A stretch of 64,000 bases of DNA from Cenarchaeum sp. (GTDB lineage: Archaea > Thermoproteota > Nitrososphaeria > Nitrososphaerales > Nitrosopumilaceae). The DNA lies in NCBI GenBank assembly GCA_965212015.1, contig OZ243037.1, positions 1,152,001 through 1,216,000 of the forward strand, in the 5' to 3' direction. This document shows, piece by piece, positions 3,371 to 15,921 of the stretch. Made by a program: the position numbers and the translations under genes. The notes beneath the pieces were generated by a model that did not search any database, was not told the origin of the DNA, and saw only the letters and a list, made by a program, of their open reading frames with translations. The first letter of the stretch is position 1. Each line of letters starts with the position of its first letter.

Positions 3371-6300
3371 CTATACTACGTTGATGTCTATTACGGCTTT
3401 GGGTGACAGTGCAGTCGGGTTGGATACTGATTCCCAGGCAAACATTGTTACTGTGTATGCTCCAGGTGTGTCAGGTATCCATGACTGTGCTGCGTTTTGT
3501 GAACCGCCAGCTGGCATTACGCCTCCGGACCAATCAAGTTTGATGATCACTCCGTTTGCGTCTTCGATCTGTACCAAATATGCATAGTCCTGCTCCTTGT
3601 CCTGTCCGCTGATCAAGTCCGCCTCAAAGTGCACCCGTGTATCCACGGATATGCTAGCTAGGGGGTTTCCTTGGCCGTCGACTACTCGCGGATCGTTGAT
3701 TACCAGGCGCTCAAGAGGCGGTACTATTGTACCGATGAACGTTGTTCCCGTAATCTGTACCTCATCCGAAGGTGAGTAAGTCCTGTCAGGCAGGTCTGGG
3801 AGAGTATTGTCGTCATATTCAGCCTTTACCGTGTCGCCTTCAGCTACTCTGAGCCTGTGGCCAGATGAGTCCTCGGTTAGCGAGAATGTCACCGTGCCCT
3901 CAAATATACCAGTTGCCTGGTTGGTCTCAGTTACAGTGAGGTCAATGCCTCCGCTGTCACTATCAGAGCGAACGTCAATGTCGAAGTTGTCTACCGATTC
4001 TGGATTCCAGTTCATGTCCGGATCAATCACACGTACAGTGCCTGTTGATGATGCAGCATAGCTAGCTTCTAGCCAGCTTACCTCACCTAGGTTCCATCTG
4101 ATCAATGAAGAGCCGATTACGGTCTCATCCTCTGAGAACTCAAAGGACACCGTTACACCGTCGTCTTCAGTGGCAGACAAGAGACCATTAGTCGGGCCCT
4201 GACCGTCAGACTCGTAGTTTGCCGGTATGGCAAATCCAACGTCCTGTCCTAGGTCGTTGCCCGTAGTCGTGTCGCCGTCAGCATCGTGCAAGAAACCGGT
4301 GAGTATTACCTCTCCGGTAAATATGCCCGTGTCGGGACCCGTCTCAGTCAGCCTGTATTGGTCAAGATCGCCCTCACCAGTGTTTACCCTTACCACGTCC
4401 TCTCTCGTTTCTCCGATTTCATCAATCAGATCGCTGTCAAAGTTGTGGTCAGGTGCAAGTATGGTGATATACACCTTGTCAGTCCAGGTATACACCTTTT
4501 GATCGAGCTCTATCGTGGCACCAAAGTTGGATGTGAGTACTGTAAGATTTACATCTTCGTCCTCGTCACCAACATAGTTTGCGCCAGATGGACCCCAATC
4601 GGTGTATTCTAGCTCGATTGCCTCGCCTCTGTCCAGATTGCTTTCGCTTAGTGCTTCAGGGATTTCAATGACAACCTGGAAGATTCCAGTGCTGTCACCT
4701 GTCTCTCTAAATGCACTTGGTTCTGGATCGAATGCTGTGTCTTGACCACCTAGTATACCCATGGTCAGTGCGGCATCGTCTGAATCCCATTCAATGAGAT
4801 CCAGTGTATAGGTCTCGCGCTCGTCATTTTCAAGGTCAAGATCTGGCTCGATTAGAGTCAGAATCATGTCCCCTCCAATAATGTACGCGGACTTGTCGGA
4901 TTGTAGTATGCCGTTTCTGAGGTCGAATGTAGCTGAATCAGTCACTGTGTTTTCTTCACCTGATGCGTCTGTTGGATCCGTGTATATCACTGTGAGAATG
5001 TCGCCTTGCAGGATACAATAGTTGCGCTCTGTATCACCGTTGAATCGGACAGTAGAGTTGCCTCTTGAACCGTCTGCTACATTCTCAAAGTTGTCAGTGT
5101 TCGGACAGTTGTTGCTAGACGGGCCGTCAGTATACCTGACAGGCAGATCCAGCTCGAATATTCCGGCATCCGGTGCAATCTCTGCAATCGGGCCGAATTC
5201 GTACTGGTTGTCTTCAGGTTCTGTGCCTACTGTGAGGTGGGTACCGCTACTTGCTTCTCCACCTGCAGTTGCCAGGATTACAGTCTCAGAGCCTCTAGAC
5301 ACGGAAACTTCTATCGGTCCTCGTGCTCCGTCTGCAATCATGTCCTCACCACTGCCAGATATGTCATAGTCCGGATCGTTGACCCTTACGTGTATGGTCA
5401 GATCACCGTTTTGGATTGTCTCGTCTGGCTGTATGCCGTCACTGCCTATACTGGCTACATGAACCGGGAATATGGCTCTTCCACTAGGGCCAGAACCACT
5501 CTCGGGATCAAAGTCGGCAACTCCGTCAGTCTCACCAACAGTACCGAATGGTACCGGGTAGACAGTTTTGTCAAAGCTGACCGAACCAGTGTTTGCGCGG
5601 ATTCCAGCAGAATCACCTACTTCGATGATTTCGCCGGACAGATCTCTATAGTCGACATAGTTTACCTCCAAGTCTACACCAGTAGTGGATACATATCCAG
5701 GAATTTCTTCAGTTCCAGATGTGTCTGCTGGACAGTACACTGTAGGTATCTGGAATGTTCCTGTGAATATTCCTGAAGCCTTTGTGGTCTCGGCCATGGT
5801 AAATCCAGTGGCTCCAAGTCCATCGTCTGCAGGATTATCTCCGAAGCATCCATTACGCTCAGCACTTGTCCATAGTTCGTCGTCGAAGGTGATATCAAGC
5901 AGTCGTCCAAGATTGTCAGCTGGATTATCATCGGTTCCAACCACATCAACATTAAAGGATGTGGTACCGCTAGTATTACGTACCACAGTAAAGATATCCC
6001 TTACCTCCACATCTGTGTTCAGATCCGGATCCTCAAGGGTAACTGTTACCGTGTCGGCAATCTTGTAGTTGTTTGAGTCAAACGATACTACGCCTGAATG
6101 AGTCGGTGCTTCTACCTGGTCTGCGACCTGTGTAGCCACGCCATCCTCGCCAAAGTCAAGATAGTTGATTCTCACTGAATCCTCGTCTGTAAGATCATTG
6201 TGGATGATCATTTCTGCATCATCGCTGATCACGTCCAGATTCGGAATGTAAGAATTAGGATCGTTGACATTGAGCTGGTTTAGCATCAGGAACTCTAGGG

Positions 6301-8374
6301 AGCCTATAAAGACTCCGGTATTGTCCCCGCTCTCTTCTAGCTCCAGCCTATAGATGGCATTGTTGACCCTGTCACCAGGAGCAACACCGTCGCCTATTTG
6401 GCCATAGCTAAAGAAGTCGATTGCTATAGGATACGTGGCTGCAGGAATGTCCTCACCAAAGTCAACAATCTCTACAGTTAGATCTTCACCCAGGAATCCT
6501 CTTTCTACAATAGTCAAGTCGGTTTCATCTAGTAGAACCAAGCCCTGAAGTCCTTCAGATGTGGCAATATCAACCTCAGTGCCGTTATTAACACTAAATG
6601 TTAGAGTGCCAATATCACTGTCAACATCTCCAAATGATCGTAGATCATAGTTCAGGAAGTGATGTACCGTATCGTTGGATGCTCCATCAAAGAAGTCCCT
6701 CAATACCGTGCCATCACCTTTGTCGAATGTGAGTGTTAGAGGAGCGGTTACAGTGATAGAGCTATTAACTACGATCAACATCCTGTCACTAAAGGCTTGA
6801 ACTTCAGAGCTTCCAATATTAGCAGCATTACCGCCTTCAATTGTAACTCCAGTCGTACCGGCCAGTGTCACTGGGCTTCCAATTCTAACGCTTGGAATCA
6901 GTGGGACGTTTGAATCAAATAGATCCAGGTCTTCGTCGACCAGGCTGTTTCTGTTGATGTCGCCGTCTGTGAGTGTGATTGATATCTGTTCACCAGAGTT
7001 CCATGCATCACCTACTCCGTCTTTGCCAAATTCTATGCTACCAAAGTAATTGGTAACAAAGATTGACTTTTCTGAGAGGTTGTAATCGATGCTTGCACTG
7101 ACTCCTCTAGGCGCATCAGCATGAACAACAATGTTGGCTATATCGCCTTCATCGGTGTTTTTGAATATGCCAGAGTTTGACTGAGTTTCAGTTATGGTCA
7201 CTGGAGCAGCACCTGCATCAATGTCTGTTATGGCTGTACCATCATCTAGTGTGACTGTCGCCGTTGCAAGTTCAGCTATACCATTTTCTACATCACTGCT
7301 CAGTACCTGTTCTGTATTGTCTTGTAGCTGAAGTAGATCACCAAATTCATGGTTCTCCTTGTTCGGATACAGTATCAAAGCTCCATTGTCGTCAAAGTTC
7401 AGGGTACTAAGAGGTATGTCTGGATGATCACCTGCACCTCCTTGTGATTCGCCATTCTCATCAAATACTTGGTATCTGGTTTCAGTGGCGCCAAAGGGTG
7501 TCGAAAATGTCCAAGAGTCTTCGTCAGTTGGGTCGATGTTTAGCTGTAGATCAGTTATGGTAAAATGAACTGATGCTCCAGGTGGATAGTCCTCCCTGTC
7601 TAGTGACAGGCCGGCATATCCATCGGCATCATCCAAGTATACCAAATCAATCTGTTGTTCTCCGCCACCCTTGTTGTACTTTACCTCGATGGTTCCATCT
7701 ACGGCAAAGTTAAACACTTGAATGGCAGGAAATTCGTTGGGAGCTAGACCGACTTGTCCAAGAGTTACTCCACCATTTCCTTCGGCGGTAGGTGTTTTTT
7801 GTTCTCTGAGAACATTTTGGTTGTCATTTCTGTCATCAGGTAATGATCCAGTTGGAGTACCAGTAGCTTCGTTACCACATGTTGCATCTTCAAAGTATAC
7901 ACCATCGGTATCAGAATAACTGGTAAGACTAACAGCAGCATCAGTGGCATCATCATCAGTGGCAGCATCAGCAGATCCTTCAGTACAGAATGTACCAAAG
8001 TCCAATGATTCACCATTAATACCAATAAGATCAGCAGCTTCTGCCATACTTGCTTCTGCAAAGTACGCATACCAGTTGCCGTCAGTTGCCTGTACCATCT
8101 GTATGTCTTGTCCATTGACCGTCACGTCTGGTTCGGATTCTAGCGAGTCCACATCCTTCAAGTCAGGATCGTTGACTACAATCTCGACGACCATAGGGCC
8201 GGCAATGCTGTTGTCAAACAGTGAGTTTTCCGCAGAAACGAACAGGTTTTCGGTAGCTGCATGTGCGACCGGCGTGCCAGGAATGGCAAACGTCAGTCCA
8301 CCTGCAACCATTATCGTCATTATTATTAGACTAGTTGTTTTTCGTATTTTGTCGTTATCTATTTTGTTTTTCAT
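3371..8374 (-). CDS. slaA: S-layer protein (SlaA, Nitrosopumilus Nmar_1547-like), 1667 aa
   Basis: Signal peptide TSLIIMTIMVAGGLTFAIPG, mature start NLFVSAENSLFDN, very acidic, repeated Ig-like units with ETxxxxGIF motifs, C-terminus FAWESVSNPTALSP. Confidence 0.9.
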   Translation of the reverse strand: MKNKIDNDKIRKTTSLIIMTIMVAGGLTFAIPGTPVAHAATENLFVSAENSLFDNSIAGPMVVEIVVNDPDLKDVDSLESEPDVTVNGQDIQMVQATDGNWYAYFAEASMAEAADLIGINGESLDFGTFCTEGSADAATDDDATDAAVSLTSYSDTDGVYFEDATCGNEATGTPTGSLPDDRNDNQNVLREQKTPTAEGNGGVTLGQVGLAPNEFPAIQVFNFAVDGTIEVKYNKGGGEQQIDLVYLDDADGYAGLSLDREDYPPGASVHFTITDLQLNIDPTDEDSWTFSTPFGATETRYQVFDENGESQGGAGDHPDIPLSTLNFDDNGALILYPNKENHEFGDLLQLQDNTEQVLSSDVENGIAELATATVTLDDGTAITDIDAGAAPVTITETQSNSGIFKNTDEGDIANIVVHADAPRGVSASIDYNLSEKSIFVTNYFGSIEFGKDGVGDAWNSGEQISITLTDGDINRNSLVDEDLDLFDSNVPLIPSVRIGSPVTLAGTTGVTIEGGNAANIGSSEVQAFSDRMLIVVNSSITVTAPLTLTFDKGDGTVLRDFFDGASNDTVHHFLNYDLRSFGDVDSDIGTLTFSVNNGTEVDIATSEGLQGLVLLDETDLTIVERGFLGEDLTVEIVDFGEDIPAATYPIAIDFFSYGQIGDGVAPGDRVNNAIYRLELEESGDNTGVFIGSLEFLMLNQLNVNDPNSYIPNLDVISDDAEMIIHNDLTDEDSVRINYLDFGEDGVATQVADQVEAPTHSGVVSFDSNNYKIADTVTVTLEDPDLNTDVEVRDIFTVVRNTSGTTSFNVDVVGTDDNPADNLGRLLDITFDDELWTSAERNGCFGDNPADDGLGATGFTMAETTKASGIFTGTFQIPTVYCPADTSGTEEIPGYVSTTGVDLEVNYVDYRDLSGEIIEVGDSAGIRANTGSVSFDKTVYPVPFGTVGETDGVADFDPESGSGPSGRAIFPVHVASIGSDGIQPDETIQNGDLTIHVRVNDPDYDISGSGEDMIADGARGPIEVSVSRGSETVILATAGGEASSGTHLTVGTEPEDNQYEFGPIAEIAPDAGIFELDLPVRYTDGPSSNNCPNTDNFENVADGSRGNSTVRFNGDTERNYCILQGDILTVIYTDPTDASGEENTVTDSATFDLRNGILQSDKSAYIIGGDMILTLIEPDLDLENDERETYTLDLIEWDSDDAALTMGILGGQDTAFDPEPSAFRETGDSTGIFQVVIEIPEALSESNLDRGEAIELEYTDWGPSGANYVGDEDEDVNLTVLTSNFGATIELDQKVYTWTDKVYITILAPDHNFDSDLIDEIGETREDVVRVNTGEGDLDQYRLTETGPDTGIFTGEVILTGFLHDADGDTTTGNDLGQDVGFAIPANYESDGQGPTNGLLSATEDDGVTVSFEFSEDETVIGSSLIRWNLGEVSWLEASYAASSTGTVRVIDPDMNWNPESVDNFDIDVRSDSDSGGIDLTVTETNQATGIFEGTVTFSLTEDSSGHRLRVAEGDTVKAEYDDNTLPDLPDRTYSPSDEVQITGTTFIGTIVPPLERLVINDPRVVDGQGNPLASISVDTRVHFEADLISGQDKEQDYAYLVQIEDANGVIIKLDWSGGVMPAGGSQNAAQSWIPDTPGAYTVTMFAWESVSNPTALSPKAVIDINVV

Positions 8375-8400
8375 GTTCTTACGATTTTTTAGAAAAAAAT

Positions 8401-8432
8401 ACTATAAAAGGGTAATGAACGAGTCGTTCATT
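8401..8432 (-). promoter_or_regulatory. slaA promoter: TATA box plus upstream perfect palindrome
   Basis: Minus strand CTTTTATAGT at 8401-8410, about 30 nt upstream of ATG 8374. Perfect inverted repeat AATGAACGA-G-TCGTTCATT at 8414-8432. Confidence 0.6.
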
Positions 8433-9068
8433 GCAAAACGAGGGAATTCCCATGAAACGTGCCTAACCACACAGTTTGCCCATGGCAGATCAGATCGCCC
8501 CAGTCAGGGCCGAATTTACTGCAAAATGACAGATCGGCCGGCCGCATCACCCGGTACCCAAGCCGCCGCTTTTGCCCCCAAGCCGGAATGGCGCACATTT
8601 GCACCACACTTGTACAGGTCCGTGCCAGAACGGGGTTTATGATGTCAACGGATCACCGTACACATCATGCGATCCAAAGTTCACGCGATCAGACGGTTTA
8701 GATAAAATTCCCAGCCGGCCGATCAGGCTTTATGAACTTTCACGCACCACATCGGTTTATTCTGGAATCATCCACACGTGAAACGGATCTGCAAGATCAG
8801 GATGTGTTTTGACGTCATGCCGGCAGTCCGGATCAACTGCACACAATCCTGGAAATCTTTTGTATTTTTGGCCCGCATGACACACAGATTCCCAACGTAT
8901 GGTGTTCTGCCCCACACGTACTAGACTCACGACAACTTTACGTACACGGTCAATGCGCATCAAATCCAAAAAGCATATTTATAAAATCACGTGCAGGACT
9001 GCAACGTCTCGTACGCCATAAAGCCCGCACCAGAGCCATTCTCGTCTTGCGGCAGAAAAATTTGACGC

Positions 9069-9626
9069 ATGTATTACCGTGACAAAACCGGAATAATCCT
9101 CGACAATGCCTTGGCATACGGCATGCATTTTATGCATTGTTTGGCCTTTGTAAATCGGAATTATACACATGCAGCCAAAGATCCAACCCTAGACTTTGAT
9201 CATGCCGCTACAACCCGCAAATCCGCAAGCATCCCGCCCCAAAATACAAGGCTCATCCTGTCTGACGCTGCCAAGGAACGACTTCGAATATACCGCGCAA
9301 AATACTATAAGGCAAACAAGGAAACGATCTTGGCTCAAAACAGAAAATATCAAGCAAAATTAAAGACCGGTAGAAAACCCAAGGGAAAACCCGGCAGACC
9401 CAAAAGAAAGCCGGGTAGAAAACCAGGTAGAAAGTCCCAAACAAAGACGAGGAAAACCGTGGGAAATCCAGTGCAAGATCCAAGGGACCTACCAAGGCAC
9501 AGCTCAGGAAATACCATCGGGAATATGCGAGGAAATACTATAAAGCAAACAGGGCAAAGATTCTCTCCAAAAATAGAAAACGAAAACGTTAAAGCTAAAG
9601 GTAAAACCAAAAATAAGACACTGTAG
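9069..9626 (+). CDS. Basic K/R-rich hypothetical protein with AT-hook-like GRP/GRK repeats; true start probably downstream
   Basis: AKERLRIYRAKYYKANKETILAQNRKY resembles segments of the next ORF, followed by GRKPKGKPGRPKRKPGRKPGRK. Confidence 0.55.
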   Translation: MYYRDKTGIILDNALAYGMHFMHCLAFVNRNYTHAAKDPTLDFDHAATTRKSASIPPQNTRLILSDAAKERLRIYRAKYYKANKETILAQNRKYQAKLKTGRKPKGKPGRPKRKPGRKPGRKSQTKTRKTVGNPVQDPRDLPRHSSGNTIGNMRGNTIKQTGQRFSPKIENENVKAKGKTKNKTL

Positions 9627-9735
9627 GAAATGATATTGTCGTGAGGTATTATGAGGTCAAATCAATACTCATTATGTACAAAACTTTTGTGCACAAAGAA
9701 CAACCCATAATAATTACCAAACAAGACATCACACA

Positions 9736-10545
9736 TTGGCAAAATCTATAGAATCGGCCAAGAAAAGGCTGGAGAGGCTAAGGCGCCAGAGGGAGTACTA
9801 TCGGGAAAAGATACTGGCCAAAAACAGGAAAAGCCCGGCAAAATCGGGGGCAAAAAATACCCGTAAAAAATCCAAGACAAAATCCGGCGTATCGGCCAAG
9901 GAAAGGCTCAGAAAATACCAGAAGGAATACTATTGGGAAAATCGGGAAAAAATCCAGGCCCGACGACAAAGATATCGGAAACAACGGAAGGAATACACCC
10001 AGAGGCCGGAGGTAAAGAAAAAATTCCAGAAATACCGGCTAGAATATTATCAGAGGCCGGAGGTGAGGGAGCGGCGAAAGGAATACATGAGAAAATACAA
10101 CCGGCGGCCGGAGGCAAGGGAGCGGCAGAAAGAATACGACCAGAGGCCGGAGGTGAGGAAGCATAAAAGAGAATACCAACAGAGGCCGGAGGTGAGGAAG
10201 CATAAAAGAGAATACCAACAGAGGCCGGAAATAAAGAGAAAACAGAAGGAATACACCCAGAGGCCGGAGGTAAGGGAGCGGCGAAAGGAATACCGTCAGA
10301 GGCCGGAGGTAAAGAAAAAATTCCAGAAATACCGGCTAGAATATTATCAGAGGCCGGAGGTAAAGGAGCGGCAAAAGGAATACAGCCAGAGGCCGGAAAT
10401 AAAGAGAAAACAGAAGGAATACACCCAGAGGCCGGAGGTGAGGGCGCGTAAAAGAAGATACGATCAGAGGTCGAAGGTAAAGGTACGTAAAAGACATTTA
10501 GCAAAGACCAGTGGGAAATCCAAGACAAAGGCCGATAGGAAATAA
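9736..10545 (+). CDS. Extremely basic tandem-repeat protein with ~12 EYxQRPE(V/I) units (13 or 17 aa)
   Basis: 269-aa ORF with TTG start; DNA repeats of 39/51 bp preserve the frame around a conserved CAGAGGCCGGA core. Confidence 0.7.
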   Translation: MAKSIESAKKRLERLRRQREYYREKILAKNRKSPAKSGAKNTRKKSKTKSGVSAKERLRKYQKEYYWENREKIQARRQRYRKQRKEYTQRPEVKKKFQKYRLEYYQRPEVRERRKEYMRKYNRRPEARERQKEYDQRPEVRKHKREYQQRPEVRKHKREYQQRPEIKRKQKEYTQRPEVRERRKEYRQRPEVKKKFQKYRLEYYQRPEVKERQKEYSQRPEIKRKQKEYTQRPEVRARKRRYDQRSKVKVRKRHLAKTSGKSKTKADRK

Positions 10546-10592
10546 TACCAGTCGGATGGCCCTTATGATTGGGACATGCCCCCTTTGATCAT

Positions 10593-10708
10593 GTGACCTG
10601 TACGGGCTTACGGGCCTTGGTGACCTGTACGGGCTTACGGGCCTTGGTGACCTGTACGGGCTTACGGGCCTTGGTGACCTGTACGGGCTTACGGGCCTTG
10701 GTGACCTG
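10593..10708 (+). repeat. 27-bp tandem repeat GTGACCTGTACGGGCTTACGGGCCTTG x4
   Basis: Four exact copies read directly, plus a partial fifth. Confidence 0.95.
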
Positions 10709-10922
10709 GGAGTTGTGTATGTGATTTGTATCCTGTCCGGGCCGGGACTCCGGCCCGGGATGGTTCTGGGCAAGAGGGCCGGCCCTGCCGGCCCGATGAT
10801 GTGATGGGATAGGGCTCCCGTCAGGGAGCCTTGGGCGATGACCTTGAAGTCCGAATGAGTTCGTCGTTGTGGGGATTGTGAGGTAACTGCGAGCTGGAAA
10901 TCCGCGCGCGGGGCTTGAAAAA

Positions 10923-11121
10923 TGGCACTTTTGCAGTCAAAAAAATGCAGTCAAAAGCATTTTTGCAGTCAATTTTTGGCATTTTTGCAGTCAGTAAAAA
11001 GATGCCAAAAGCATTTTTGCAGTCAAAAAAATGCAGTCAAAAGCATTTTTGCAGTCAGTAAAAAGATGCCAAAAGCATTTTTGCAGTCAAAAAAATGCAG
11101 TCAAAAGCGCTTTTGCGGTCG
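10923..11121 (+). repeat. TGCAGTCA / A-tract array (9 exact cores plus 1 variant; 64-bp higher-order duplication)
   Basis: Cores spaced 14, 18, 22, 32, 14, 18, 32, 14, 18 bp. Confidence 0.9.
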
Positions 11122-11241
11122 AAATGGATCCGGATGACAGGACGGCTCAAAAGCCAGAGCAGATAACACAGAGTCGGCTGGCCATCAAGATTGAGAGACT
11201 CCTCTTGGTGATGTGGGACCTGTACGGGCTTACGGGCCTTG

Positions 11242-11365
11242 GTGACCTGTACTGGCCTGTGGGGGCCTTGGTGACCTGTACTGGCCTGTGGGGGCCTTGG
11301 TGACCTGTACTGGCCTGTGGGGGCCTTGGTGACCTGTACTGGCCTGTGGGGGCCTTGGTGACCTG
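11242..11365 (+). repeat. 29-bp tandem repeat GTGACCTGTACTGGCCTGTGGGGGCCTTG x4
   Basis: Four exact copies, preceded by one nearly complete copy of the 27-bp variant. Confidence 0.95.
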
Positions 11366-12060
11366 TGGGGTTGTGTATGTGATTTGTATCCTGTCCGGGC
11401 CGGGACTCCGGCCCGGGATGGTTCTGGGCAAGAGGGCCGGCTCTGCCGGCCCGATGATGTGATGGGATAGGGCTCCCGTCAGGGAGCCTTGGGCGATGAC
11501 CTTGAAGTCCGAATGAGTTCGTCGTTGTGGGGATTGTGAGGTAACTGCGAGCTGGAAATCCGCGCGCGGGGCTTGAAAAACGACCCTTTTGTGGTCGGTA
11601 ATCGACCTCTTTGTGATCGAAACAGGCTGGGATGACGGAACGGCTCAGGAGTCGGAGTAGATAACAGAGTGGGCTGGCCTTCAAGATTGAGAGACTCTCC
11701 TTGGTCATGTGGCCTGTGGCCCTTGGTGGCTTGTGGCCGGCCTTGGTGACTTGTGGGAGTCTAGACTTTGTCCCAGATGGTTTTGGGAGAGGGCCGGCTC
11801 TGCCGGCCTTGGTGTATGGTTCGGCCGGAGACTCTGGCCTATATGATTCCGGGCAAGAGGGCCGAACCTGTGACCCGGGATGGTCCTTGGCTAGTCGGGC
11901 TGGCCTACAGCCCGACGGTGTGGTGGAACGGGGCTCCCGTCAGGGAGCCCCGGGGAAAGACGTTGAGATTACTGAATCGTGGTTCGTTGTTGGGGATTTA
12001 TGAGGTAATGCGAACTCGTCTGTCGTAAATGCGCATACGTGAGGGATATCAGTCATATTT

Positions 12061-12210
12061 CTTTGTGCACATTGTGCACAACCATTGTGCTCTTTGTGCA
12101 CAAAAAAATGTGCATATTGTGCACATTGTGCACAACCATTGTGCATTTTGTGCACAAAAAAAGTGCTTTTTGTGCTCTTTGTGCACATTGTGCATTTTGT
12201 GCACACAGAA
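12061..12210. repeat. Array of palindromic TGTGCACA cores in 9-mers, 54-bp period
   Basis: Eight exact TGTGCACA (12064, 12073, 12095, 12118, 12127, 12149, 12180, 12198) plus degenerate copies. Confidence 0.9.
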
Positions 12211-12227
12211 AGTGCACTTGGTGTACC

Positions 12228-12460
12228 CAGTGTACGCAAAAAGGTGTATTGCGTACACTCAGTGTACCGTCACGTAGCACTCAGTGTACGCAAAAAGGTG
12301 TATTGCGTACACTCAGTGTACCGTCACGTAGCACTCAGTGTACGCAAAAAGGTGTATTGCGTACACTCAGTGTACCGTCACGTAGCACTCAGTGTACGCA
12401 AAAAGGTGTATTGCGTACACTCAGTGTACCGTCACGTAGCACTCAGTGTACGCAAAAAGG
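12228..12460. repeat. 54-bp tandem repeat x4 plus a partial copy, each unit with an 11-bp inverted repeat
   Basis: Unit CAGTGTACGCAAAAAGGTGTATTGCGTACACTCAGTGTACCGTCACGTAGCACT contains AGTGTACGCAA-N9-TTGCGTACACT. Confidence 0.95.
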
Positions 12461-12712
12461 GTACACTTGGTACATTTGGTGTACCCATACGTAGCACTTG
12501 GTGCACTCAGTGTACGCAAAATGGGTGCACTTGGTGCACTTGGTGTACCCATACGTAGCACTTGGTGCACTTTGTGTTACCTCACGTAGCTCTTTGAGCT
12601 ATCCCCACGTAGCTCTTTATGCTCTTTATGCTACCTCACGTAGCTCTTTGAGCTATCCCCACGTAGCTCTTTATGCTCTTTATGCTACCTCACGTAGCTC
12701 TTTGTGCTTTTT
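12461..12712. repeat. Continuation of the 9-mer satellite: a 64-bp-period pair, then a 54-bp repeat x2 (CCTCACGTAGCTCTTTGAGCTATCCCCACGTAGCTCTTTATGCTCTTTATGCTA)
   Basis: Read directly from the sequence. Confidence 0.9.
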
Positions 12713-12946
12713 TACCCAAAGTTGGACTGTGGCATTTGGGCATGACAATCAAAGACCCAAATTAGAAGCAGATTCCATGCGATCAAACCAACGTCTGCCT
12801 GATCTCAAAGAACGACTCAATAATTCCCAAAGCCCCATATTGGCAAGATCCAAGATATTGACCAAGGAAAGACTCGGAAAATACCGCTAGAGGCTCATGT
12901 GGGAATTGTGCTTTTTCTGCAATTTGCGCTAGCAGACCCTCTGACA

Positions 12947-14359
12947 TTAGGATTCCACCTTTTGTGTGATTGGCCGGCGCACAAGGAATCTGCCGTCGGA
13001 GAGCTCCTTGTCCATATCCCACCCCCGGGCCGAATGCTCCAGCAGGCTCTGCTCATCCTTTACAATCTTGCTCTCAAAGGGGTTACGGCCGACAGGCTCT
13101 TCCTGCTTTATCCTGTCTGGGGTCTGCTCTGATTTTGGGTCCTGAGCAAGCACGGGCGGGTCCACCCCGTACATTGTCGCCTGCTGGCGCCACATCTCGA
13201 GCAGCATCTCCTTTTTGTCCATGCCCGCACCAGAGGAGTCGGTGGCCAGAAACATCTGGCTTTGTGTGTATGCGCGCCTCATATCCTCCATCATCTGCTC
13301 TGTCAGCATTCCCTTGTTGGTCGTATATCGCGCCTCCATGTCGCCCTTGTGGCCCATAAAGAACTGCCTGTATGCGTGCGTCATGCACCCGTGGCTTTCG
13401 GCCATGAGCATCTGCGTGTCAAAGTACGCCCTCAGGGCGTACGGCCGGATCTTCATCACGCTCCAGATAATCGGCCGTATGCTAGACGATATGTTTGTCG
13501 TGGTCAGATACAGGTTTGAGTCGTCCTTGCGCCTTCCCTTTATCCTGTATCCATGTCCAACCGCAATCAGTGCAGAGTCCGGCTTCAATATCTCCCCGCG
13601 CGCTATGCGCGCTTGAAGATATCCCAGGACATACTTGCAACCCTGCTCGCTCAGAAACGTCATGTACTTGTTGCGCGTCTTGCTCAGATTCGCCCGTACT
13701 ATTATTCTGGCAGGCATTTTTTCAAATCTAACCCTATCGCCGTCGATTACAAGCTCTGGCATGTCACCAAGGCACAGACCGTCGTCCCTCTCTACGGTGC
13801 CCATAACCTGCGGACGTATTCCGGAGAACGCCATCAGGCTGATTATGACCCTGTCACGCGGGGCTCCGGCATCAAGAATTTGCCGCAGCTGATCCTGATC
13901 CGGAACCTTTTCGTCCTGGATTCTTACCGGCACGTCCTCGTTTCTGATCTTTATCTTGCGCTTTATCTCTATATGGTTGTACTCTAGCCAAGACTTTATC
14001 GCCTTTATCATGCCGCCGATGTATCCCGGCGCATATTTCTGTCCCTCCATCCACGAGACGTGATCAAGCAGTATGTTTTCTACTTGCATTGGATCCTCCC
14101 GTCCAGTCTTTACAAGCTGTTCGGGTGATACTTTGATCCTGTCGCAGAAAAGATTCAGTCGCCGCAACTTTACGCCTGCGCTTAACACGCTTGAGCGGCG
14201 AATGTTATCATACCATCTGCGTATGTCATCATTATTCAATAATAGTTTAGGGGGTTCGGTCGCCATTCTGTTCCAGCTTCGGATCTTTGATTTGGATGTA
14301 ATCGTATTTGTACTTGGCGCATTTTGATCAACGTTGATACCTCTATGTTGTTGCATCAT
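12947..14359 (-). mobile_element. Tyrosine recombinase / site-specific integrase (start possibly at 14266)
   Basis: Catalytic motifs FSGIRPQ (Arg I), KTRNKY (Lys), RPYALRAYF (YxxR in place of HxxR) and FMGHKGDMEARY (His/Tyr); lies directly downstream of the tRNA-Lys 3' end. Confidence 0.92.
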
Positions 14360-14579
14360 CGTTGATACCTCAACTTTGACATTCTTTCATTAGGAATTAT
14401 ATATGGGATGTTTTTATATTGTGAAATAATACGGCGCCCTTCCAATTCTGCCCTTGATTTGAATAATACAATTTTTAAAATCATTTTTTGGAAATGAAAT
14501 TTGTTTACAATTCTAAAATCCAGAATATTTTTTTTGCTCGATTCTGAAAACATTATATCATATAGTTGTGTTAAAAAAA

Positions 14580-14656
14580 TGGCGGGTCTAAGGGGATTCG
14601 AACCCCTGACAGCCGGATTAAGAGTCCGGTGCTCTACCTGGCTGAGCCATAGACCC
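14580..14656 (-). tRNA. tRNA-Lys(CTT), encoded CCA
   Basis: GGGTCTA...CCGGA-CT-CTT-AA-TCCGG...GTTCGAATC...TAGACCC-G-CCA cloverleaf. Confidence 0.97.
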
Positions 14657-14704
14657 GCACACTGATCCAGCTTCAAAGTTGTTATTAACGTTAAGGTGTG
14701 AAAC

Positions 14705-15307
14705 CTAGCTTGCCACTTTGGAGTCTAGCTGCTCATACTTTTCAAGAATCGCAGAAAGGACGGTGGACACTGGTATGTCGTTCATCTTTTTCTTTTCAGA
14801 GAGGAGCTTTTGATAGGCATCAAGCGTAATGTATACCGGAATCGAGCCGTTGCCCTCTAGCAGTCCCCTCACCTTGAACAGGGCAGTCTCCATCCCGCGC
14901 CTGGCGGATTTTTCAAATTTCGCCTTGTTCATGATGGCGCCTAGCGGGCCAAACGGCATCTGATAGTCCACTGTCATGGTGACGCTAGTCAGGTTGTCGC
15001 CTAGCGCCTTGAACTCGTTTGTTATATTCCACCTCTTAAACGGCCCATTGATCTGTTTTGCCGAGATTCTCTCTTCCCTGTCAAATTCCGTAGTCTCGCA
15101 GTCCCATTCGAGCCTTTTTCCGCTAAAGTCGCTGATTATCCTAAAGGTGGTGCCTACGCCCATTCCCTCCTTTATGTCCATGGGAATGACAGTCATGCCC
15201 ACTCCGTTGTCAGTCATTTGGTCAGAGACGTGCTCTGGCCTTGCAAAATACGTAAAGACCGTGCTGACGGGGGCCTTGATATCGATGGACTTGCTCACTA
15301 TCGTCAA
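14705..15307 (-). CDS. SRPBCC / START-domain (polyketide cyclase-like) protein
   Basis: VSKSIDIKAPVSTVFTY start and GPFKRW motif; TTG start chosen. Confidence 0.85.
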   Translation of the reverse strand: MTIVSKSIDIKAPVSTVFTYFARPEHVSDQMTDNGVGMTVIPMDIKEGMGVGTTFRIISDFSGKRLEWDCETTEFDREERISAKQINGPFKRWNITNEFKALGDNLTSVTMTVDYQMPFGPLGAIMNKAKFEKSARRGMETALFKVRGLLEGNGSIPVYITLDAYQKLLSEKKKMNDIPVSTVLSAILEKYEQLDSKVAS

Positions 15308-15342
15308 TAATTGCCTCTCTTGGCAATCTTGATTTAAAGGTT

Positions 15343-15921
15343 TTGACAATATTTTGCAAAAAAATCCCTTACAATATATTCGCCATAATACGCATCCTGA
15401 GCGGAATGGGGGTGTGCGTATTTGGGGCATGCATTGTGCTTTTGGTTTTTCTGACACTCCAGGCGGCCCCGGTCCAGGGCCACTCCCTTTTTAATTCGGC
15501 CGAGGAGTTCATCGGGGGATACAGGGTTCAGATCGCAACGCTGCCCGAGTTCCCGCAGATCGGCGAGGATTCCCAGATTCTGCTGAGGGTGACAGACGCC
15601 GAGTTCGCAGAGGTGGACGATTTTACGGTGGGAACCAGGTTCACCTACAACGGGGATCAGATACTGGCCACAAGCCCGACACCCGTCGAGGGAAGCCACT
15701 GGGAGATGAGCTTTGTCTTTGAGAGGCCCGGCAACCACATCGTATATGTGGACCTGTACGACACTGCACCAGGCAAGATCCTGACGTACACGTTTAACAT
15801 CGGCACGCAGAGCCCGTTTGGATACATCTTTTTTATCGCCATTACAATCGGTGCGGTGACGTTTGCAATTGTAGTCGGCTATATCTATCTGCCAAGGATA
15901 CTCGCAGTGCTCAGGCGCTAG
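15343..15921 (+). CDS. Conserved exported membrane-anchored protein next to the cox cluster
   Basis: Signal peptide ending VQG-HSLFNS (His at mature N-terminus), Ig-like body, C-terminal TM helix; start uncertain. Confidence 0.7.
   Translation: MTIFCKKIPYNIFAIIRILSGMGVCVFGACIVLLVFLTLQAAPVQGHSLFNSAEEFIGGYRVQIATLPEFPQIGEDSQILLRVTDAEFAEVDDFTVGTRFTYNGDQILATSPTPVEGSHWEMSFVFERPGNHIVYVDLYDTAPGKILTYTFNIGTQSPFGYIFFIAITIGAVTFAIVVGYIYLPRILAVLRR

Follow-up and report, generated by a model that had tools for sequence, protein, structure and literature searches.

Folded non-coding units and phased tandem repeats beside a tyrosine integrase of Cenarchaeum sp.: a candidate cryptic integrative element

Most of the integrated elements in ammonia-oxidising archaea are "cryptic", and the persistence and movement of small ones without replication genes call for an explanation. 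This question is raised by a locus at positions 9069–14656 of a 64,000-nucleotide stretch of Cenarchaeum sp. DNA (assembly GCA_965212015.1, contig OZ243037.1, positions 1,152,001–1,216,000 of the forward strand). The whole stretch is referred to here as the window, and coordinates are those of the window unless a position in the genome is named. An earlier note on this DNA had listed, between a putative surface-protein gene and a tRNA-Lys gene, a tyrosine integrase, very basic repeat proteins and about 2.2 kb of organised non-coding DNA, and all of these parts were located. It had also reported that no Rep, ParA, capsid or reverse transcriptase gene was visible, in agreement with our failure to detect Rep, Par, capsid or reverse transcriptase families in the open reading frames (ORFs) of the locus that were tested. 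The most plausible answer, which is still a tentative one, is that the locus represents a cryptic integrative element (its tRNA-proximal part or a fixed remnant) with a Rep-less maintenance or control region composed of structured transcripts and protein-binding arrays. As a covarying folded motif outside Rfam 15 that is accompanied by fast-changing phased repeats and recurs behind an integrase, the locus is a testable candidate.

The non-coding block (10546–12750) spans about 2.2 kb without credible ORFs and has a GC content of about 0.6, with a GC skew of +0.2 to +0.26 across 10400–12000. Two ORFs in the block, at 11055–11708 (− strand) and 12039–12494 (+ strand), were tested as genes, but neither has a Pfam match and both translate repeats; they were treated as non-coding. 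Three structured units lie on the + strand of the block. Unit U1 occupies 10709–10938 (helix P1 at about 10735–10760 and the P2–P4 core at 10773–10900), and U2, which is 97% identical to U1, occupies 11367–11596 (core at 11431–11558). U3 (11760–12030, core at 11893–12021) is diverged, contains a duplicated P2-like hairpin and is ~79% identical to U1 and U2 over a 57-nt core common to all three. It had been proposed that the first unit starts at the stop codon of the repeat-protein gene (ORF2, see below), but the first satellite begins 48 nt past this stop codon and the first helix of U1 lies ~190 nt past it. The units of the window measure ~230 nt as repeated stretches, and the motif itself is ~130–175 nt long and comprises helices P1–P4. 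P2 is a hairpin of 8–10 bp, P3 is a hairpin of 9–11 bp with a GUCA-type loop, and P4 consists of GUUCGU paired with GCGAGC and encloses UUUGUGAGGUAA; a P1 hairpin often stands in front of them. The linkers GACGG..UGGUAC and AAAGAYGUUGA are kept, and the stems are wholly different between GC-rich and AT-rich genomes.

A covariance model was built from 10 units of the same genome and run over 82 loci, yielding an alignment of 31 matches. In this model-fitted alignment, 91% of the pair cells are paired compared with 71% in shuffled alignments (none of 500 shuffles reached 91%), and 21 of the 26 pairs change on both sides. When the partner columns were slid by 1–3 positions, pairing fell to 29–54%. 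Folds computed for each sequence independently gave the same helices as the covariance model. MAFFT alignment followed by RNAalifold on mixed units misaligned the shorter stems and recovered the structure in part, and was replaced by these per-sequence folds and the covariance model. G.U or U.G cells are far more frequent than A.C or C.A cells (58 versus 8), and one U.G pair is present without exception in 26 of 26 sequences. It is therefore the strand opposite to the integrase that folds, and this strand is also the sense strand for the basic-protein genes. U1 together with its satellite folds at a z score of −3.6 on the + strand and −2.3 on the − strand. The units are co-oriented with ORF2 and, in an array of another genome, with AbrB/MazE-like ORFs. 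The unit motif is thus a real, conserved and strand-specific folded element. In Rfam 15, tRNA was the only family matched at the gathering score within 8300–14800, all other rows being far below their cutoffs, and no match was found in seven related loci.

The units are interleaved with tandem repeats. A 27-bp satellite (GCCTTGGTGACC type; 4.3 copies, 100% identical; 10593–10708) precedes U1, a 29-bp satellite (4.6 copies, 100% identical; 11234–11366) precedes U2, and a 20-bp satellite (2.6 copies; 11709–11756) precedes U3, all three on the + strand. AT-rich 32-bp repeats (GCATTTTTGCAGTCAAAAAAATGCAGTCAAAA; 6.6 copies) at 10925–11124 follow U1, and U3 is followed by an array of the palindromic 9-mer TTGTGCACA (12063–12216; eight exact copies with spacings of 9, 22, 23, 9, 22, 31 and 18) and then, at 12228–12708, by 54-bp (4.3 copies, 100% identical), 64-bp (2.1 copies) and 54-bp (2.9 copies) repeats, which contain internal inverted repeats with GTACAC and ACGTAGC motifs. 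Of 33 units, 25 are followed by a tandem repeat within 350 nt, and 20 are preceded by one within 500 nt. The downstream repeats have periods of 22, 31–33, 44, 53–55 and 64 bp and are built of small palindromes; these periods lie near multiples of 11 bp, or one helical turn, which is the phasing seen in iterons and centromeres. In several loci, a short-period (13–30 bp) GC-rich satellite is located upstream of the unit, and its sequence is unrelated between genomes. Some repeat types are common to different genomes (TTTTGCGGTCGGTnnTCGACC, GGTGCAAAAGGGGTCAGTTnnTGAC and TGTGCACA/TGTAGACA), a TTTGTGGTCGGTAATCGACC motif located after U2 is also found in the arrays of two other genomes, and a GCATTTTTGCAGTCAAAAAAATGCAGTCAAAA-type 32-bp repeat also follows a unit at 648.8 kb of the same genome. 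Copy numbers of an identical repeat vary between homologous loci (2.9, 5.1 and 4.1 copies of a 33-mer). One array consists of modules of 0.9–1.4 kb, two of which include small AbrB/MazE-like ORFs on the same strand as the units.

Since perfect repeats are prone to error in assembly, a collapsed or chimeric repeat block has to be considered as the source of this organisation, and the earlier note had named misassembly as one circumstance that would undo its reading. No single public record spans the block, so that the repeat copy numbers are provisional, and short-read contigs break inside it. However, the genome is a single contig with a completeness of 99.7%, and portions of the block recur in contigs of four runs from two studies, from which they differ at few positions (strain differences). 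In addition, a paralogous array is present elsewhere in the same contig and homologous arrays occur in several independent assemblies. An assembly artefact is therefore very improbable.

Perfect tandem repeats have been described in Borgs, where they create disordered protein regions (PMC9879509). Both cases concern perfect, recently formed and fast-evolving tandem repeats in an archaeal mobile element, whereas the repeats described here are non-coding, palindromic and paired with a P1–P4 unit; the abstract of the Borg study mentions no adjacent folded motif. Our literature searches returned no title or abstract describing such arrays of units and repeats.

Would the units then be genes for free, trans-acting non-coding RNAs? 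According to this explanation, stable RNAs would be produced from an operator-controlled array and would work for the element or the host in regulation, in defence or against defence, for instance as decoys or RNA antitoxins. We consider it unlikely, although it deserves attention. Covariation and strand asymmetry are the same as would be expected for structured transcripts that act in cis, and the conserved single-stranded linkers (GACGG..UGGUAC, AAAGAYGUUGA and UUUGUGAGGUAA) suggest a bound partner; ORFs with N-termini that look ATPase-like by eye lie near both copies of the module in this genome. A precedent for tandem structured copies near integrase genes is provided by the STAXI motif (Rfam RF01728; Weinberg et al. 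2010), a repeated enterobacterial pseudoknot for which the choice between RNA and single-stranded DNA as the active form is undecided (PMC2864571). As in STAXI, a structured motif is repeated in tandem near integrase and DNA-handling genes on mobile DNA and poses the same RNA-or-DNA question, whereas the element described here is archaeal, has the P1–P4 structure, is coupled to a block of tandem repeats and matches no Rfam model. On the other hand, no partner protein is conserved beside the arrays across genomes, no RNA sequencing run containing the locus was found, and a free RNA would leave the tight coupling between units and DNA-type repeats (25 of 33 units) unexplained.

The integrase (12947–14359, − strand) is a divergent protein of 470 amino acids. 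Attempts to identify it by sequence profiles failed throughout: there was no Pfam match even at E ≤ 10, the PF00589 profile was not matched, PHROGs and PDB sequences gave no match, and the NCBIfam XerA model NF040815 scored 25 bits against a cutoff of 220. Fold search alone succeeded. In a Foldseek search against PDB, an AlphaFold model (predicted local distance difference test, pLDDT, 73; alignment of 27 homologues) matched 48 chains at E ≤ 0.001, of which XerA (5hxy, E 7e-8) was the best, and IntI (2a3v, 6e-7), XerH, Cre and lambda Int were also among the matches. As modelled, the protein has the two-domain fold of tyrosine recombinases (core-binding and catalytic domains), followed by an extra C-terminal alpha/beta domain at about residues 425–465. 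R182, K227, R310, H337 and Y345, as well as Y307, are invariant across the 27 aligned homologues, and from the surrounding motifs we read R182, K227, Y307/R310, H337 and Y345 as the putative catalytic R-K-(H/Y)xxR-H-Y set.

At E ≤ 0.001, 1212 homologues of the integrase were found, and among the matches listed with a source name nearly all are called 'hypothetical'. Two paralogues (67 and 40% identity) are present in the same genome. The family occurs in 22 of the 41 relatives searched, often as multiple or broken copies, and in none of four same-genus genomes. In the genome collection it comprises 378 loci; the locus counts given below refer to 78 of these, all from other genomes. A tRNA gene on the same strand lies within 700 bp upstream of the integrase in 47 of the 78 loci, and 13–18-bp direct repeats of the tRNA end, which resemble attachment (att) sites, are present in three; one of these three is a 3.1-kb element consisting of the integrase and one gene that appears ATPase-like by eye. 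It is thus a typical mobile-element family targeting tRNA 3′ ends. The integrase of the window is likewise in the classic tRNA-side position, adjoining the 3′ end of tRNA-Lys(CTT) (14580–14656, − strand; 71.8 bits with the Rfam tRNA model), which lies just upstream of it on the same strand. An AT-rich spacer (14360–14579; GC content of 0.33) separates the integrase start from the tRNA 3′ end and is the expected position of an att site. Downstream of one integrase of this family (L048:14124–14396), ARAGORN gives four overlapping 'tRNA-???' genes at distances of 60 nt, which probably represent a tandem repeat with a cloverleaf-like fold.

The association of integrase and array is not confined to the window. 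A second full module is located at 646.8–652.4 kb of the same genome, with a basic-protein gene (647230–647763), five units, 54-bp repeats (homologous copies of this type at 650312–650550) and an integrase (651057–652655; 67% identical to that of the window) in the same order, followed by the second integrase paralogue (652704–653966; 40% identical). In total, 14 units were identified in this genome by nhmmer and the covariance model, and integrase-less arrays or single units are found at 324, 756, 947, 1108, 1134 and 1144 kb. In other genomes, units lie downstream of the integrase in 10 of the 78 loci (6 genomes, 14 matches; covariance model, E < 1e-3). All units of these 10 loci are on the strand opposite to the integrase; they are within ~4.5 kb of it in seven loci and at 7–9 kb in three. 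For example, in L047, from an AT-rich Nitrosopumilus assembly, the 2.2 kb that follow the integrase stop codon are laid out in the same way on the opposite strand, with three units interleaved with other perfect repeats. One further genome carries a six-unit array between a gene that resembles an insertion sequence (IS) gene by eye and an unrelated PF00589-type integrase beside tRNA-Leu, and one more genome contains a lone unit that lacks an integrase within 10 kb. Because units are found in few integrase loci and also beside an unrelated integrase, they are recurrent cargo of tRNA-site integrative elements in a few genomes rather than the fixed partner of one integrase clade. The units mark a module that is invisible to protein-based annotation and fragmented in the short-read contigs examined.

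In three loci of two genomes (L070, L073 and L098; ~11515–12270), the same three perfect 32–33-bp repeats are located ~100–200 bp past the integrase stop codon, with copy numbers from 2.0 to 13.5. L073 contains an extra ORF of 278 amino acids between the repeats and the unit, possibly an insertion sequence. The placement of tandem repeats right after the integrase stop codon was examined as a family-wide feature and rejected: with 6 of 69 loci versus 0 of 63 and 1 of 45 in controls, it is a feature of a subset.

Co-oriented, strand-specific folded elements beside a tyrosine recombinase, separating variable modules, bring integrons to mind, all the more so as IntI is among the top fold matches of the integrase. 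The locus might accordingly be regarded as a cassette platform in which the units are attC-like recombination sites of folded single-stranded DNA, each cassette consists of a unit and its repeats with or without a small ORF, and the integrase or a second recombinase inserts, excises and reorders the cassettes. Arrays do differ by whole modules of unit and repeats (in genome G385, a six-unit array corresponds to the three-unit array of G358 with further modules added), common repeat types are ordered differently in the genome studied here and in G358, and some modules contain small AbrB/MazE-like ORFs. Integrase-less arrays, here exemplified by the six positions between 324 and 1144 kb, occur in integrons as well. 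In contigs of two runs, 11416 is joined directly to 11881/11884, so that one unit is left out, a weak indication given flanks of 22–25 nt. Nevertheless, we judge this explanation to be improbable. The array is convergent with the integrase and located at its 3′ end, in the window and in all 10 other loci, whereas an integron array lies at the 5′ end with attI and a promoter; neither attI nor a cassette promoter was seen here, and the layout that defines integrons is absent. Compared by description, attC consists of one imperfect hairpin carrying conserved R and L boxes, whereas the units have three or four helices with conserved linkers. Most of what the modules contain is non-coding, the integrase family otherwise behaves as an ordinary tRNA-site family and mostly lacks arrays, and one array lies beside an unrelated integrase. 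Moreover, homologous recombination between near-identical units, such as U1 and U2 (97%), explains gain and loss of modules equally well. A similarly long shot is a new archaeal cassette system that works through the P1–P4 units, either as folded single-stranded DNA recombination sites or as guide or scaffold RNAs for the neighbouring tyrosine recombinase. Such a system would capture, reorder and amplify modules of protein-binding arrays and small DNA-binding genes. It would be the archaeal equivalent of an integron, or else a tyrosine recombinase assisted by RNA, in which regulatory DNA rather than protein genes is exchanged.

Two genes for basic proteins precede the non-coding block. ORF2 (9736–10545, + strand) starts with TTG and encodes a very basic protein of 269 amino acids (isoelectric point, pI, 10.8; 39% K+R) with 11 copies of a 13-residue EYxQRPEV repeat, in which RP[ED][VIA] recurs every 13 residues. 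A single-sequence AlphaFold model (pLDDT 87) predicts one 11-residue helix per repeat with a break at each RP. ORF1 (9069–9626, + strand; 185 amino acids as read; pI 10.8) shares an ERLRxYxxxYYKAN motif with ORF2 and resembles the N-terminal part of the latter, but changes frame near 9456 (9440–9470), a second KYYKANRAKILSKNRK motif being in another frame; it is therefore a damaged copy. Thus, the two basic repeat proteins described previously are indeed related, but only ORF2 is intact. In contigs from two public runs (X3 and X4), one more C follows 9456 and would preserve a single frame. The frame change reflects either a genuine pseudogene in the strain sequenced or an assembly error at a homopolymer. 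ORF1 also resembles a region at 226.2–227.1 kb of the same genome; it has no Pfam match, and its match to a PHROG HNH-endonuclease family is weak (E 0.009). The remnant of a third basic-protein gene, truncated after its first ~16 codons, was recognised together with a promoter-like box at 12806–12890 (+ strand) by alignment to the ORF2 start and to the paralogue at 647 kb.

The repeat itself is widespread. Homologues of ORF2 number 456 at E ≤ 0.001, with 14 matches in the same genome, and the EYxQRPEV repeat occurs alone or fused to GIY-YIG, HNH, endonuclease VII, sigma-70, HTH or zinc-primase domains. All eight homologues examined show the 13-residue repeats, and GIY-YIG, HNH or endonuclease VII domains are present in four of them; Pfam has no model of its own for the repeat family. 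In view of its nuclease, sigma-70, HTH and zinc-primase fusion partners, the repeat probably binds nucleic acid. Proteins with the EYxQRPEVKER repeat come from many sources (P0121, P0134, P0164, P0174 and P0160), and this repeat may be an undescribed DNA-binding repeat of homing-endonuclease-like proteins. A widespread 13-residue basic repeat without a Pfam model of its own deserves a binding study.

A link between these genes and the arrays is provided by the palindrome TTTTGTGCACAAAGAA (9685–9700), which is located just upstream of a TATA-like box (CATAATAATT) and the start codon of ORF2 and contains the same 9-mer as the array at 12063–12205. The + strand of the window has nine exact TTGTGCACA sites, one at 9687 and eight in 12063–12205, consistent with the earlier observation that a satellite motif recurs upstream of the repeat-protein gene. 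The 12-mer TTTGTGCACAAA occurs three times in the 1.76-Mb genome, always at the ORF2 promoter site or in the 12063–12205 array. The 9-mer and 54-bp arrays are themselves located upstream of the promoter-like box of the truncated third gene. As the palindrome is common to the ORF2 promoter and the array, and lies upstream of the truncated copy, the basic proteins or their regulator probably bind the arrays.

Taken together, these features would fit the following organisation of a cryptic integrative element. A Pfam-invisible tyrosine integrase beside tRNA-Lys is followed by modular non-coding cargo on the opposite strand, each module consisting of a short GC-rich satellite, a P1–P4 element and a block of phased palindromic repeats. 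In the genome studied here, genes for very basic helical proteins with the 13-residue repeat stand on either side of the modules. Folding only on the strand opposite to the integrase points to RNA as the most likely form of action, and the P1–P4 elements would then be transcribed in the direction of the basic-protein genes. The repeat blocks most likely serve as double-stranded binding arrays for sequence-specific DNA-binding proteins; in other genomes the binders may be AbrB-like or helper proteins. Loaded with protein, the arrays would function in the manner of iterons or a centromere; the G-rich structured transcripts would be cis-acting and take part in priming, copy control or processing. 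The non-autonomous element could then persist, or be mobilised, with the aid of the host or of a helper element. The maintenance role, the transcription of the units and protein binding to the arrays are all putative.

Similar devices are known from plasmids, namely iterons, the tandem-repeat centromeres sopC of F and parC of R1, the Rep-independent RNA II origins of ColE1 type and single-strand origins such as ssoA. The locus shares with iterons and centromeres its perfect direct repeats, which contain palindromes and are spaced at whole helical turns, and with origins of ColE1 and sso type a strand-specific folded element; origins of ColE1 type require no gene for a replication protein. The likeness is one of sequence, and there are differences: no Rep, ParA or ParM gene was found in the ORFs tested, and the elements described here contain several repeat types and three to six folded units each.

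Several observations weigh against a cryptic integrative element organised in this way. Three to six units and several kinds of repeats per element exceed the needs of one origin or centromere. The pair counts stem from an alignment fitted to the covariance model, which favours structure, and G.T pairs form in single-stranded DNA too, so that the units may act as DNA. No archaeal promoter or terminator was identified for the units, and no RNA sequencing run was found to contain the locus. The second module has no adjacent tRNA gene, the nearest tRNA-Lys(TTT) being at 628.9 kb. Units are rare: under stricter filters, the covariance model found them in 2 of 151 family genomes (the model was searched against 151 genomes and 160 loci), a strict 17-mer pattern located them in 4 of 401 family genomes once a look-alike had been removed, and 68 of the 78 integrase loci have no unit at E < 1e-3. 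EYxQRPEV proteins were not found by tblastn within 10 kb in any of the 78 integrase loci; being absent from the arrays of other genomes, the basic proteins cannot be essential. The earlier proposal that all parts form one system, for which co-occurrence in relatives had been suggested as the check, therefore survives for the integrase and the arrays, which are linked in the second module and in 10 of the 78 loci, and fails for the basic proteins, whose repeat is widespread on its own or fused to other domains.

The look-alike deserves comment. The strict 17-mer matched 26 of 401 genomes, and 22 of the 25 genomes other than the one studied here contain a look-alike stretch, not units. This stretch, which contains a 17-mer almost identical to the 3′ motif of the unit (TGTGAGGTAAATGCAAG), is a conserved single copy in loci L123–L128 and L132–L147 of 22 family genomes, and it looks like protein-coding sequence, with differences at about every third base; pattern searches are easily misled by it. 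A pattern scan of IMG/VR gave three stretches, none of which is a unit according to the covariance model. In Joint Genome Institute (JGI) metagenomes, where the pattern is too loose, at least 117 stretches were found, and the 80 examined included no accepted unit. A single weak JGI match (E 0.002) lacked an integrase match, a tRNA and a unit-like context and was taken as false.

Further points against a cryptic integrative element concern its ends. Within the window, no match of at least 12 nt to the tRNA region was found that could represent a second att site. Among shorter candidates, only 9-nt A-rich matches at chance level were obtained, and the spacer at 14360–14579 is not repeated at the other end. 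In four same-genus genomes, tRNA-Lys and the other flank are present and the integrase is absent, but no empty site that would bound the element was found, because these genomes lack synteny on the element side of tRNA-Lys. The element may be an immobile remnant.

A sceptical explanation is that the locus is selfish or decaying debris, in which a unit family resembling miniature inverted-repeat transposable elements (MITEs) and slippage satellites have accumulated without function in a dead element. ORF1 is frameshifted, the third basic-protein gene is truncated, att sites were not found and units are rare across the family. Some of the 14 units in the genome are isolated and degraded, those at 947, 1108 and 1144 kb scoring 52–64 bits compared with 103–145 bits for the others. 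Such decay is nevertheless hard to reconcile with pairing that persists although stem sequence and GC content have turned over completely between the genomes compared, with a strand asymmetry that points to selection on the folded strand, with the recurrence of the same module grammar with unrelated satellite sequences, and with an orientation to the integrase that is constant in 10 of 10 loci. We therefore regard debris as an improbable explanation.

If a cryptic integrative element is present, it belongs to the cryptic integrated elements (CIEs) of Thaumarchaeota described by Krupovic et al. (2019), which have sizes from 2.6 kb (PMC6563490). It resembles them in being small, with a tyrosine integrase beside a tRNA 3′ end and no hallmark genes of viruses or plasmids. 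Since att sites of only 8 bp are reported for thaumarchaeal CIEs (PMC6563490), a site of this kind could have escaped recognition here. The locus differs from CIEs in that its cargo consists almost wholly of non-coding units and tandem repeats and in that the ends of the element are undefined; the term 'tandem repeat' does not occur in the main text of PMC6563490. The description of the locus as a minimal, Rep-less integrative element, offered before as one possibility, is a fair one given the linkage of integrase and array and the tRNA-targeting family. As RNAs, the units would form a class of archaeal RNA that is new and associated with mobile DNA; as DNA sites, they could represent a new recombination or replication signal.

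Elsewhere in the genome (947064–947725), a lone − strand unit lies 450 bp past tRNA-Val(TAC), which is on the + strand, and no integrase accompanies it; such a layout would be expected of a decayed element of the same kind. The second module is flanked on both sides by large ORFs with N-terminal motifs that by eye resemble HATPase/MORC-type ATPases, and these ATPase-like ORFs possibly form a defence island.

On the right, the element is limited by ordinary host DNA, which lies beyond tRNA-Lys. This host DNA begins with an ORF at 14705–15457 for an SRPBCC/polyketide-cyclase-like protein (PF10604, E 1e-8), and the ORFs past it resemble haem-copper oxidase genes by eye. On the other side lies an ORF of 1667 amino acids (3371–8374, − strand), which had been labelled 'slaA' before; it has no Pfam match, and the label is unverified. 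The region at 8300–9107 shares sequence (78–96% identity) with 1132.6–1133.3 kb of the genome, upstream of a second large surface-protein-like gene (1127619–1132760; 1713 amino acids), and as it is common to the upstream region of this gene, it is probably outside the element. A unit and a short TGTGCACA array are located at 1134.2–1134.6 kb, after the gene for the 1713-residue protein. The 40 kb before the window contain a third ORF, of 1761 amino acids, a gene for a basic repeat protein of 462 amino acids and ORFs that are AAA/OLD-type-ATPase-like by eye, and the stretch from 1124000 to 1152000, together with 3371–9107 of the window, looks like a variable island.

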